Assembly (NCBI GenBank): GCA_004284765.1
Contig: NQJD01000042.1
Location: forward strand, 1 to 20,903
Source: Candidatus Electronema aureum
Lineage (GTDB): Bacteria; Desulfobacterota; Desulfobulbia; Desulfobulbales; Desulfobulbaceae
Direction of reading: 5' to 3'
DNA length: 20,903 nt
Shown here: positions 5,295 through 7,103 of the stretch, piece by piece
How the letters are laid out: each line of letters opens with the position of its first letter
Position numbering within the stretch: position 1 is the first letter of the stretch
Notes under the pieces: generated by a model
What the model was told of the DNA's origin: nothing
The model's input: the letters and a program-made list of their open reading frames with translations, nothing else
Database searches by the model: none
Program-made: the position numbers and the translations under genes

Positions 5295-5732
5295 ATGGAC
5301 CCTGTTACAATGGCGGCTATCATCAACAGCAGCGTCAACGGCATCGCGTGCGGAGCAGCAGGCGGTTTGACTGCTGCCACAGTCCCGGCAGCAGTCAAAG
5401 CGGCGACCGATGCGTGGAACAGCTTCAAAGCCCTGTTGCAGCGCAAGTTCGGCCAAGACAGCGCGTTGCTGAAGTCAGTGCAGGAACTGGAGCAGAACCC
5501 AGACTCCAAAGCCCGCAAGGATCTAGTTGCGGAGGAGGTGGCGAAGAGCAAGGCGCATCAGGATGAAGAGCTGTTGGCCGCTGCTGGCAAGCTGCTGGAG
5601 CTGCTCAAGGAAAGCGCAGGCGGAGGGCAGACTCGCGCCAAGTATCAGGTTGATGCGCAGGGAGCGCAGGTTGGTGTGATTGGTGACAATGCCAACGTGA
5701 AGGACGGCATTCATTTCGGCAGACGAGAATAA
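5295..5732 (+). CDS. small Gly/Ala-rich N-terminal plus helical protein with a C-terminal NLR-matching motif (candidate Bell/HeLo-like effector)
   Basis: 145 aa. AAGGAG RBS at 5283..5288, 6 nt before the ATG. N-terminus MDPVTMAAIINSSVNGIACGAAGGLTAATVPAAV is rich in small residues (glycine-zipper-like). Residues ~35-110 look amphipathic helical. A G-rich linker follows. The C-terminal AQVGVIGDNANVKDGIHFG matches the N-terminus of the next gene. Confidence 0.8.
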   Translation: MDPVTMAAIINSSVNGIACGAAGGLTAATVPAAVKAATDAWNSFKALLQRKFGQDSALLKSVQELEQNPDSKARKDLVAEEVAKSKAHQDEELLAAAGKLLELLKESAGGGQTRAKYQVDAQGAQVGVIGDNANVKDGIHFGRRE

Positions 5733-5741
5733 CCGAACATG

Positions 5742-5769
5742 GTAGGGTTACGGCATGCCGTAACCCTAC
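5742..5769. repeat. perfect 28-bp palindrome in the effector-NLR intergenic gap
   Basis: GTAGGGTTACGGCATGCCGTAACCCTAC equals its own reverse complement (12-bp stem, 4-nt loop as RNA). No T-run follows it. It lies between the stop at 5730..5732 and the ATG at 5787. Same GTAGGG...CCCTAC style as the hairpins at 7184..7299. Confidence 0.9.
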
Positions 5770-5786
5770 GACGTGGTGATTTACAG

Positions 5787-7103
5787 ATGAGCAATCAAAC
5801 CGGCATCATTGGCAAGAAAGCACGTGTTAAAGGCGGCATTCATTTCCATAATCATCCTGCACCGCCGCCCATCATCCCCGACCAACGCCCTCCCCGTGAA
5901 CCCTGCTTTCTCCACCGCGAGGAGGAGCTTATCTGGCTGAACGAGAGGCTGCATCCCGGCAAGGTCGTTGCGGTATGCGGGCCGGGCGGCATGGGCAAGA
6001 GCGCACTGGCTGCGCAGGCGGTGCGTCGGCTGGAGCCAGTCCGCTTCCCGGACGGCATCATCTTTCACAGCTTTTACAGTCATCCCAGAATAGAACAAGC
6101 CCTGCAAGAGATTATCAAGGCTTTTGGCCAGGAGCCTGAGCCGCCATTAGACACCACCCTGCGCAGGGTGCTCTCAGGCAGGCAAGCCCTGCTCATCCTT
6201 GATGGGACGGAGCGGGCTGATGACCTGCCAGCACTGCTGCGGCTGCGCGGTGGGTGCGGAGTGCTGATCACCAGTAGGAAGACTGAGGACGCACCGGATG
6301 AGCTGCGTGAACTGAAGAAGCTGGAGAAGGCGCAAGCAGAAGAGGTGTTCCGGCACTACAGCAAGATTGCGGGTGATGACGTAAACGTGGCGGACATCTG
6401 CAAGATACTGGACGGCTGGCCGGTGGCCCTGCGCATTGCCGGGCGGTATCTGCGCAAGACGAAAGAGAGCGCGGCGGAGTACCTGCGCTGGTTGGAGAAG
6501 GAGCCGTTCAAGGAGCTGGGCGACGGCGAGCATCAGGAGGAGAATGCCGCCTTGCTGCTGCGGCGCAGCGTGGATGCGGTGAGCGATGATGCCCGGCTTG
6601 CGCTGGAGTTGGCAGGAGATTTGGCCTTTCTGCCGATAGCCCGTGCCCCAGTGGTAGCCATGATGGAAGGTGATGAACGACGAACACGCAACGCATTGAA
6701 CGATCTGGCCAATTACGGTTTGGTGGAGCGCATGAAAGAACGATGGAAGGTAAGCCACGCCCTGATTCATACCTATGCCCGCATCGAGCTGCCATTAAGC
6801 AAGGAAAGCATAAGGCGAATAGCACAATACATAAAAATAGAATCATGTCTTTTTGATGAGCAACGTCTGCGGGAAATTGTTAAACATGCTCTTGAAAGTC
6901 CGGGCAGTGAGATTACTGCCTATTGGCAGGAGGTGATCATCACCACCACTGGCAACAAGCACTACGAGGCAGGGCAGACGTTCAGGGTGAGATTTCCCGA
7001 CGGCAGCGATGCTGTCGGGGTGATTGGGGAGGTTCTGCTTAAGTGCGATGGGCCGGACAAGGCAGTAACGCAGCAATTTCCTGTCAGCTATTTGCCTAAA
7101 TAG
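5787..7103 (+). CDS. NB-ARC-type STAND (NLR-like) P-loop ATPase with an N-terminal short motif and no repeat sensor domain
   Basis: 438 aa from the ATG at 5787; the track start at 5739 reads through the palindrome. Walker A GPGGMGKS (res 65-72). Walker B LLILDG (135-140). VLITSR (159-164). GxP motif DGWPVALRIAG (209-219). MHD-position SHALIHTYA (323-331). N-terminus MSNQTGIIGKKARVKGGIHFH is followed by a Pro-rich linker HPAPPPIIPDQRPPREP. The C-terminal ~100 aa has no TPR/WD/LRR pattern. Confidence 0.85.
   Translation: MSNQTGIIGKKARVKGGIHFHNHPAPPPIIPDQRPPREPCFLHREEELIWLNERLHPGKVVAVCGPGGMGKSALAAQAVRRLEPVRFPDGIIFHSFYSHPRIEQALQEIIKAFGQEPEPPLDTTLRRVLSGRQALLILDGTERADDLPALLRLRGGCGVLITSRKTEDAPDELRELKKLEKAQAEEVFRHYSKIAGDDVNVADICKILDGWPVALRIAGRYLRKTKESAAEYLRWLEKEPFKELGDGEHQEENAALLLRRSVDAVSDDARLALELAGDLAFLPIARAPVVAMMEGDERRTRNALNDLANYGLVERMKERWKVSHALIHTYARIELPLSKESIRRIAQYIKIESCLFDEQRLREIVKHALESPGSEITAYWQEVIITTTGNKHYEAGQTFRVRFPDGSDAVGVIGEVLLKCDGPDKAVTQQFPVSYLPK

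Follow-up and report, generated by a model that had tools for sequence, protein, structure and literature searches.

The locus considered here raises the question of whether two adjacent genes of a cable bacterium encode a cell-death effector and the receptor that activates it. The genes lie in a window of 20,903 nucleotides (the whole stretch of DNA that was analysed, contig NQJD01000042.1) from Candidatus Electronema aureum, a freshwater filamentous cable bacterium of the Desulfobulbaceae. Gene 1 (5295..5732, +) is an open reading frame (ORF) of 145 amino acids that exact look-up identifies as TAA74038.1 / CAK8716517.1, annotated as a 'hypothetical protein'. Gene 2 (5787..7103, +) is an ORF of 438 amino acids encoding an NB-ARC STAND ATPase without repeats, the product of which is 100% identical to TAA74039.1 / CAK8716522.1 (2.94-Mb contig). 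An initial annotation, made from the DNA sequence alone, had described two co-oriented genes 54 nt apart, an arrangement that these ORFs bear out, and had read them as a Bell/BASS-type module. The data presented below make it likely that the pair, which is located between ffs and dnaX, comprises a Bell effector and an NB-ARC receptor of the BASS type, and is a candidate for the amyloid-templated activation of a membrane-targeting cell-death effector.

The two proteins are connected by a common terminal motif, referred to here as motif A. On the effector side the motif (AKYQVDAQGAQVGVIGDNANVKDGIHFG) occupies residues 115-142 of gene 1 (5637..5720, +), with the core common to gene 2 at 5667-5717, while on the receptor side the alignment places it (QTGIIGKKARVKGGIHF) at residues 4-20 of gene 2 (5796..5846, +). 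The ungapped alignment of QVGVIGDNANVKDGIHF (residues 125-141 of gene 1) with its gene 2 counterpart displays identity at 11 of 17 positions, and the local alignment score of 59 compares with 18.2 +/- 3.4 (maximum 34) in 2000 shuffles of the receptor N-terminus, a difference of 12 standard deviations. The likeness extends to the DNA, which is 72% identical over 39 nt, and the motif is rich in G, V, I, Q and N with alternating hydrophobic residues. These data show that the C-terminus of the effector and the N-terminus of the collinear NOD protein carry the same motif. In gene 2 the motif is separated from the NB-ARC module by a Pro-rich linker (PAPPPIIPDQRPPREP, 5856..5903, +, read from the translation), and an equivalent linker follows the motif in nearly all paralogs; both the common motif and the linker had been recognized in the initial annotation.

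The public record of gene 2 (TAA74039.1) begins at ATG 5739, giving a protein of 454 amino acids, but sequence comparison favours ATG 5787 (438 amino acids) as the start. The equivalent of this position, with MSNQ, MTQQ or MSDQ, is exactly where paralogs begin whose upstream DNA is unrelated (in P0022, P0023 and P0024, exactly the MSNQ/MTQQ position), GGTGA stands 7 nt upstream, and the 16 extra codons from 5739 are taken up by a 28-nt perfect palindrome. With the start at 5787 the spacer between the two genes is 54 nt.

Linkage of the two genes and co-variation of their motifs had been put forward in the initial annotation as checks on the pairing, and both came out in its favour. At nine other loci (L001, L002, L005/L006, L008, L009, L010, L011, L012 and L015) the gene directly after a homologue of gene 1 encodes an NB-ARC-TPR protein, and the two genes either overlap or are a few nucleotides apart. 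The genomic context differs among these loci, which adjoin different housekeeping genes, including valS and a hemA-type gene (GlutR). A 10 x 10 matrix of effector C-termini against receptor N-termini is block-structured. Motif-A effectors score 56-72 with motif-A receptors compared with 16-31 with BASS6-type receptors and, conversely, BASS6-type effectors score 55-115 with BASS6-type receptors compared with 16-25 with motif-A receptors. When the partners in this matrix were permuted, the true sum was reached in 104 of 20000 cases. The motifs of the two partners thus co-vary across homologous pairs.

The most direct illustration of this co-variation is provided by the syntenic locus of Ca. Electronema nielsenii F5 (L002), where the order is tadA, tRNA-Ser, effector, receptor, repeats, Uma2 and dnaX. 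Although the Bell domain encoded there shares 92% identity with that of gene 1, the motif is of the BASS6 type on effector and receptor alike; the receptor retains its TPRs. Judged by these alignments, a coordinated swap between motif A and BASS6 has affected both partners where the orthologous locus of a sister species is concerned. In a metagenomic version of this locus (L005) effector and receptor both bear motif A, the spacer contains the same palindrome and the receptor is a full 646-amino-acid NB-ARC-TPR protein. In a distant pair (L015), in which the effector is 36% identical to gene 1 and the receptor belongs to a different NOD-like receptor (NLR) lineage, motif A is again present on both sides (...GAQIGVVGDNTKVEGGIHFE versus MTSKTQIGVRGDGAYIEGGIHFH).

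The N-terminal region of gene 1 consists of a helical Bell-like domain (residues 1-108, 5295..5618, +) that starts with MDPVT and continues into a small-residue-rich hydrophobic helix 1. In the N-terminal sequence, MDPVTMAAIINSSVNGIACGAAGG, D2 and T5 are invariant and M1 is nearly so among 16 homologues, and the Kyte-Doolittle 19-residue mean is 1.0-1.4 across the first ~35 residues. The AlphaFold2 (AF2) model predicts helices at residues 3-22, 32-52, 57-67, 72-85 and 91-108, with a predicted local distance difference test score (pLDDT) of ~85 for residues 40-100, while in the monomer the motif-bearing tail (residues 109-145) is predicted to be disordered (pLDDT <50). The small-residue-rich N-terminus, helical middle and G-rich linker noted in the initial annotation are all present in the sequence. 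Seventeen homologues of gene 1 are all flagged as PF20701 HetE-N in precomputed data. A profile of residues 1-108 retrieved 228 proteins, nearly all of which start with MDP(V/I)(T/S). Outside cable bacteria these relatives, of 120-150 amino acids, come from Streptomyces, Nostoc, Nocardiopsis and Kitasatospora (E 1e-19 to 1e-24 for matches in these four genera), with many from metagenomes.

An unbiased sample of 175 sequences from the published training sets for BASS1-10 (supplement of PMC8086366) served as the reference against which the C-termini of the profile relatives were scored. BASS3 was assigned to 39 proteins, BASS2 to 17, BASS4 to 8 and BASS6 to 5, with scores of 45-117 against members of these classes and of up to 117 for BASS3. 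Two loci found independently, one from Streptomyces (L003) and one from Mycobacteriales (L004), encode a Bell-like protein that ends in a BASS3-type motif, and the L003 gene adjoins an NLR gene with the matching motif. On the strength of this homology to proteins with BASS C-termini, which lends weight to the Bell/BASS reading of the initial annotation, gene 1 is assigned to the Bell-domain family. Bell was modelled as a bundle of five helices by Dyrka et al. (10.1101/2020.01.06.895854), who also described an acidic residue near the N-terminus as a rule for Bell, HeLo and MLKL. An N-terminal 'MEPIS' motif is important for cell death in Bab and Avast2 (Ibarlosa et al., 10.1101/2024.11.07.622273). 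The MDPVT start of gene 1 corresponds to this motif, and the protein combines a hydrophobic helix with an acidic residue at position 2/3.

With respect to the class of the motif, the six nearest neighbours of the effector tail in the 175-sequence sample are all BASS3 (47 compared with a null of 36 +/- 4.6). This reflects the KYQVDAxGAQ prefix, which is typical of BASS3 (compare KYQVDARKAQGVQIGDHGTQINKFG or KYAVDARGANVGAIGDHSRQHNTF), and intermediate tail forms exist, such as ...GTVIGDNANVTQNFG. The GGIHF(H) ending is also found in the published BASS2 members VVQARDVHGGIHFG and GTFIGGDNYGGIHFE. Motif A therefore appears to be a hybrid related to BASS2 and BASS3 and not cleanly one of BASS1-10.

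Gene 2 contains an NB-ARC module (5937..6821, +), which comprises a Pfam match to PF00931 over residues 51-261 (E 4.3e-9, 36.4 bits against a cut-off of 23.5) and homology to the paralog family up to ~residue 345. All of the landmarks listed in the initial annotation are present, namely Walker A GPGGMGKS (5979-6002), LLILDG, VLITSR, GWPVAL and HALIH, and the protein belongs to the NB-ARC (AP-ATPase) STAND NTPases. The closest solved relative by sequence is the NB-ARC of Streptomyces AfsR (E 9e-7, residues 60-333). Among 358 relatives of gene 2, the best 120 are almost all NB-ARC-TPR proteins of 640-700 amino acids from Ca. Electronema and Ca. Electrothrix, with several per genome. In keeping with the earlier statement that the receptor lacks repeats, a Pfam scan of gene 2 found no TPR, WD or LRR family match, while nearly all of its homologues carry TPRs, including the orthologues at the same locus (P0020 and P0047).

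In place of the TPR sensor gene 2 has a conserved C-terminal domain of ~90 amino acids (6831..7100, +). This tail shares 95% identity with its counterpart in P0019 and 61% with those in P0027 and P0074 (Ca. Electrothrix), and all of these proteins end at the same position. Only 7 matches to the tail were found among 1.84 billion representatives, one of which is a stand-alone protein of 118 amino acids (P0141, 38% identity); the remaining matches are short 'FPDGS' pieces of Big_6/Rib giant proteins and provide only a hint. No Pfam family matches the tail, and a weak ADC match (E 0.0033) is likewise only a hint. The tail probably has a β-rich fold, as modelled, and its position makes it a candidate sensor or autoinhibitory domain.

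The origin of this domain is indicated by a sliding-window comparison, in which gene 2 is numbered from the annotated start (454 amino acids). Residues ~150-240 are ~90% identical to the receptors of the locus orthologues, P0020 and P0047, and from ~residue 240 onward gene 2 shares 86-100% identity with P0019. Recombination between paralogs therefore replaced the TPR sensor. The motif region of gene 2, in turn, is identical to that of P0023 (KKARVKGG variant). Both P0019 and P0023 are encoded upstream of lysA, with no adjacent Bell gene. A further observation concerns the tail-bearing paralog P0027 (L007 1-4842), whose gene is preceded by that of a >2476-amino-acid protein with a hydrophobic C-terminus and no Pfam match and is followed by PIN and other toxin-antitoxin-like genes, again with no adjacent Bell gene.

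Homology, linkage, motif match and motif co-variation are established for the pair, and all that lies downstream of them we infer. Gene 2 would operate as a STAND switch that is off at rest, with the ~90-amino-acid C-terminal domain sensing a trigger, for example a phage component or cell damage. Nucleotide-dependent oligomerization of the NB-ARC would gather the N-terminal motifs, which could then fold cooperatively into a cross-β nucleus, as suggested by NWD2/HET-S and by the tested BASS1, BASS3 and BASS11 motifs. This nucleus would template the matching, co-varying motif that gene 1 carries in its flexible C-terminal tail. Conversion of the tail would free hydrophobic helix 1 (MDPVT...) from the five-helix Bell bundle, such that the helix inserts into the membrane and the cell is killed, a step for which Bab/Agp and HET-S provide the basis, and the death of one cell would protect its neighbours in a clonal filament. 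Each part of the pair has its equivalent in the relay established for HET-S/NWD2. The precedents for this scheme (10.1101/2020.01.06.895854 and 10.1101/2024.11.07.622273) are experimental: fibrils, prion behaviour and receptor-side seeding were shown for BASS1 and BASS3, and Bab/Agp mediates phage-triggered, motif-dependent abortive infection with relocalization to the membrane.

It should be noted that several observations weigh against this scheme. The hmmscan match of gene 1 to PF20701 HetE-N reached 18 bits, below the cut-off of 25, and Pfam alone thus leaves its Bell membership unsettled. No PDB entry was matched at E <1 when the gene 1 model was searched with Foldseek, and a sequence profile of gene 1 likewise retrieved no PDB chain. 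Scans of viral contigs with both proteins revealed no relatives. PADLOC returned weak matches only (JetB, E 0.0023; mad8, E 0.0056) and none for gene 1, and the surroundings of the pair are housekeeping genes with no defence island. Gene 2 does not have the architecture of an NB-ARC or NACHT with TPR, WD, ANK or LRR repeats, being without the TPR sensor by which Dyrka et al. define an NLR, and the AF2 model of its tail is weak (pLDDT 53). Finally, KK stands in the receptor-side motif of gene 2 at a place where DN is found in most relatives, BASS motifs are reported to be depleted in Lys, and neither the 17-residue core nor the receptor side scores above the null for any single BASS1-10 class in the 175-sequence sample.

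These features of the motif bear on the possibility that it is a homotypic docking tag, which recruits the effector one-to-one through β-strand addition or in an adaptor-like manner, with no self-propagating cross-β fold. Such a role would suit the Lys-rich receptor side (KKARVK), which is atypical of BASS composition, and a core without significant similarity to any of the published BASS classes in the k-nearest-neighbour test. The KK variant is, however, recurrent: the full-length TPR protein P0023 has an identical GKKARVKGG and the receptor of L012 an intermediate GDKVRVKGG. Moreover, the effector family and the prefix of the motif grade continuously into BASS3, which, like BASS1, gave fibrils and prions experimentally, the GGIHF(H) end recurs in BASS2, and the sister-species locus has BASS6 on both partners. 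A G/V/I/Q/N-rich sequence with alternating hydrophobic residues, in a region that is disordered in the monomer, is also more in keeping with an amyloid motif than with a docking tag, which is considered unlikely. The mosaic structure of gene 2, with its breakpoint at ~residue 240, raises the different possibility that the locus is a decaying relic, in which the recombinant receptor has lost both TPR sensor and signalling and the motif match is inherited without being maintained. The close syntenic relative L005 retains the full 646-amino-acid NB-ARC-TPR receptor, and truncated or frameshifted paralogs exist, for example at L012 and among several proteins of 330-390 amino acids. Against this, the gene 2 ORF is intact and retains all NB-ARC motifs, and the replacement tail is 61% conserved across genera in full-length proteins with the same end and also occurs as a stand-alone protein, which suggests a functional domain rather than frameshift debris; decay is thus judged quite improbable. 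It is hardly conceivable that the match arose by chance between low-complexity Gly-rich termini or from an artefact of gene calling. Although Gly is abundant in both termini and the annotation places the start of gene 2 elsewhere than at 5787, paralogs start at the same Met. The score against composition-preserving shuffles (12 standard deviations) and the recurrence of the motif in independent pairs have already refuted this explanation. An effector and receptor of the Bell/BASS type remains the likely interpretation of the pair.

Comparison with characterized systems places the pair closest in layout to the Bell/BASS-NLR pairs that Dyrka et al. (2020) described from filamentous Actinobacteria and Cyanobacteria. 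As in those pairs, a short helical effector of ~120-150 amino acids, in which position 2 is acidic and helix 1 hydrophobic, ends in a motif of ~20-28 amino acids that is repeated at the N-terminus of an adjacent collinear NB-ARC protein and followed there by a Pro-rich linker. The effector domain is, in addition, homologous in sequence to the Streptomyces and Nostoc members, and the host is multicellular. Unlike the pairs of Dyrka et al., gene 2 has no TPR or WD repeats and contains the ~90-amino-acid uncharacterized domain instead, the host is a cable bacterium of the Desulfobulbia, and motif A appears to be a hybrid, with a prefix on the effector that resembles BASS3 (KYQVDAxGAQ) and an end that resembles BASS2 (GGIHFH). 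In HET-S/NWD2 of Podospora anserina an N-terminal receptor motif templates the C-terminal motif of the pore-forming effector next to it, the N-terminal helix of which then targets the membrane, and the cable-bacterial pair may work in the same way. No homology to this system was detected, and there is no HeLo or HeLo-like Pfam match at E <= 1. Motif A is unrelated to HRAM and occurs once in gene 1, compared with two pseudorepeats in HET-S, and gene 2 is an NB-ARC protein with neither WD nor TPR repeats, whereas NWD2 is a NACHT-WD protein.

Bab/Agp (BASS11) of E. coli ECOR25 is similarly an adjacent pair in which a small helical effector with a 'MEPIS'-type N-terminus has a C-terminal motif in common with the N-terminus of its partner, and it constitutes experimental proof that this layout gives phage-triggered cell death (10.1101/2024.11.07.622273). 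The Babybell domain, however, has ~80 amino acids, with four helices cupping helix 1, compared with ~108 amino acids and five predicted helices in gene 1. The motif class differs, and Bab/Agp resides in a prophage defence hotspot whereas the pair described here lies among housekeeping genes. Gene 2 is not an Agp-type receptor, being an NB-ARC protein in which a Pfam scan found no PIN or GreA/B-C match. Avs/AVAST and bNACHT proteins share the STAND NTPase core, and some of them fuse the 'MEPIS' death motif directly to the receptor; in contrast to gene 2 they carry the effector on the same polypeptide, with no amyloid relay, and no Avs or bNACHT model of PADLOC matches gene 2. AfsR, a SARP-NB-ARC-TPR protein of Streptomyces (PDB 8k60, 8jke), resembles gene 2 in the sequence of its NB-ARC module, but it activates transcription, has TPRs and a DNA-binding SARP domain, and possesses neither a terminal motif nor a paired effector.

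The initial annotation had placed the module in a lineage different from those in which such pairs were known. This agrees with Table S1 of Dyrka et al. (10.1101/2020.01.06.895854), which lists 34 Desulfobulbia genomes with 0 Bell and 0 NB-ARC-TPR proteins. A literature search found no paper linking cable bacteria with NLRs or amyloid signalling. What is new here is a Bell/BASS-NLR pair in cable bacteria of the Desulfobulbia, with a repeat-less receptor and an in situ motif swap between sister species; the kind of system is known. RWX accessions are, we presume, those of cable-bacterial genomes. RWX52249.1 (SGAIAQGQGAVAAGAGGIAVGGSVHGGINMPDNRDK), a Bell-side sequence nearly identical to cable-bacterial BASS6-type effectors, is present in the 2021 BASS6 dataset, as is a '9DELT' entry, and this detracts from the novelty of the find.

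Work on Actinobacteria, Cyanobacteria, Chloroflexi and Methanosarcinales has led to the proposal that amyloid-relay modules for cell death are a hallmark of multicellularity in microbes. Since cable bacteria are multicellular and filamentous, the find fits this published rule and does not break it. Cable bacteria represent an independent, strictly filamentous lineage in which the filament is a clonal chain of thousands of cells with a common electrical conductor, and their expanded Bell/BASS-NLR repertoire adds one more independent observation that bears on how multicellularity and altruistic cell death are linked. The locus is also a natural experiment: at the same chromosomal site and with the same effector domain, sister species have exchanged the signalling motif on both partners, and one of them has exchanged the sensor domain as well. 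Motif specificity and cross-seeding are thereby directly testable with a few peptides and chimeras.

The paralogous receptors of cable bacteria display varied short motifs at their N-termini, often two or three in tandem. Motif A, with the pattern Q(T/I)GI(I/L)GDNAxVxGGIHFH, is present in ~15 of them, and other receptor motifs are a BASS6-like SGSGAxAQxGAVAAGxxGIAxGG, GGEQNIAQGDxAIGKQ, VDGNGNIxxGSGDVH and IIxGDNFESGGG...LIQAKEVHL. Two effectors, P0007 (L001 187-687) and P0008 (L009 6001-6471), have a BASS6-type motif in tandem with GGEMNIGQGKxxxGKQxN(T/Y)Y, and the receptors that adjoin them carry the first motif only. The second motif matches the very common GGEQNIAQGDxAIGKQ of unlinked receptors, which suggests that one effector serves several receptors. 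P0068 was considered as a second partner of P0007, given contigs of equal length, and dropped, as only P0030 adjoins P0007. In five receptors (P0036, P0061, P0086, P0108 and P0137) an extra hydrophobic N-terminal segment (for example ...WSGFYTSIVFAVLLPLLLYLGKRC...), which is probably membrane-spanning, precedes the amyloid-type motifs. P0015, a protein of 197 amino acids at a contig end, consists of a Bell domain and motif A (GVIGDGARIQGGIHFHQHHH) running into ...DIFISYAKEDKEL. This continuation resembles the start of a TIR domain, and the protein may be a fused, all-in-one variant.

It is tempting to speculate that cable bacteria run a combinatorial amyloid 'address code', in which >100 NB-ARC paralogs with 1-3 tandem motifs of at least 5 types, many of them unlinked, converge on a few Bell effectors, some bearing two motifs. 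Motif cassettes and sensors would be reshuffled by recombination between paralogs, and the ~90-amino-acid tail would be a new class of non-repeat sensor. Such reshuffling would be exemplified by the mosaic structure of gene 2 and, at the tadA-ffs-dnaX locus, by the coordinated exchange of motifs. The proposal as a whole is tentative, and we consider it possible rather than probable.

With respect to the remaining linked loci, the pair at L015 adjoins a type I restriction HsdR fragment. At L012 (880-1130, from a metagenome) a frameshift in the receptor beside a motif-A effector separates the motif of the receptor, MSNQIGIIGDKVRVKGGIHFHNH, from its NB-ARC, and the TPR part forms a separate ORF; this receptor is either a pseudogene or an assembly error. 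A scan of the genome collection with the effector alignment, which relies on one back-translated peptide pattern, returned 3 loci.

The 54-nt spacer between the two genes contains a 28-nt perfect palindrome (GTAGGGTTACGGCATGCCGTAACCCTAC, 5742..5769, +). The stable RNA hairpin that it forms has a predicted fold energy of -27.3 kcal/mol (z -4.75), and its outer helix covers the GGUGA ahead of gene 2. The spacer, including the palindrome, is identical at the syntenic metagenome locus L005. The hairpin may, speculatively, keep translation of the receptor low relative to that of the effector. A second 28-nt perfect palindrome (7272-7299) is located ~170 nt past the stop codon of gene 2. The two palindromes bracket gene 2 and have common ends (GTAGGG...CCCTAC). 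The chance expectation for such palindromes is 0.01 per window, and a longer imperfect element (GTAGGGGC...GCCCCTAC) lies at 7185-7258. The GTAG at the 5' end of the palindromes is reminiscent of repetitive extragenic palindromic (REP) elements. The gene that they flank is the one with the recombination mosaic. Between gene 2 and the Uma2 gene downstream is an array of ~5-7 units of 23 nt (7331-7491, consensus TTGTACTCTCGTGCAATGCACCG), in which a 12-nt core flips orientation in alternation (TTGCACGAGAGT / ACTCTCGTGCAA). No Rfam family matches the 7331-7491 array, and a similar sequence is present 3' of the receptor gene at the F5 locus (L002).

The gene order around the pair is ilvD, an ArsP permease, tadA, tRNA-Ser, signal recognition particle (SRP) RNA, the gene pair, Uma2 and dnaX, with trpF, trpC and trpD farther away. 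Upstream are tRNA-Ser(GGA) (4742-4827) and the SRP RNA gene ffs (4854-4952, 76.9 bits), and an inverted repeat with 28-nt arms that are 93% complementary (5058-5130) lies between ffs and gene 1. The block of effector, receptor and Uma2 genes looks like an insertion into a conserved tadA-tRNA-ffs-dnaX stretch. Scans for terminators and promoters around the pair gave nothing above shuffle expectation that bears on an operon. The Uma2-family gene that follows the pair (7587-8063) encodes a putative restriction endonuclease-like protein, as does a second member of the family (11641-12171) that is lodged between trpC and trpD, and the gene of the paralog P0019 is also preceded by a Uma2 gene. Farther along the window, on the - strand, is a gene for an 888-amino-acid AmiC-type protein with AMIN and Amidase_3 domains (15053-17719); AmiC homologues are mentioned by Dyrka et al. 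(10.1101/2020.01.06.895854) with regard to multicellular growth in cyanobacteria.

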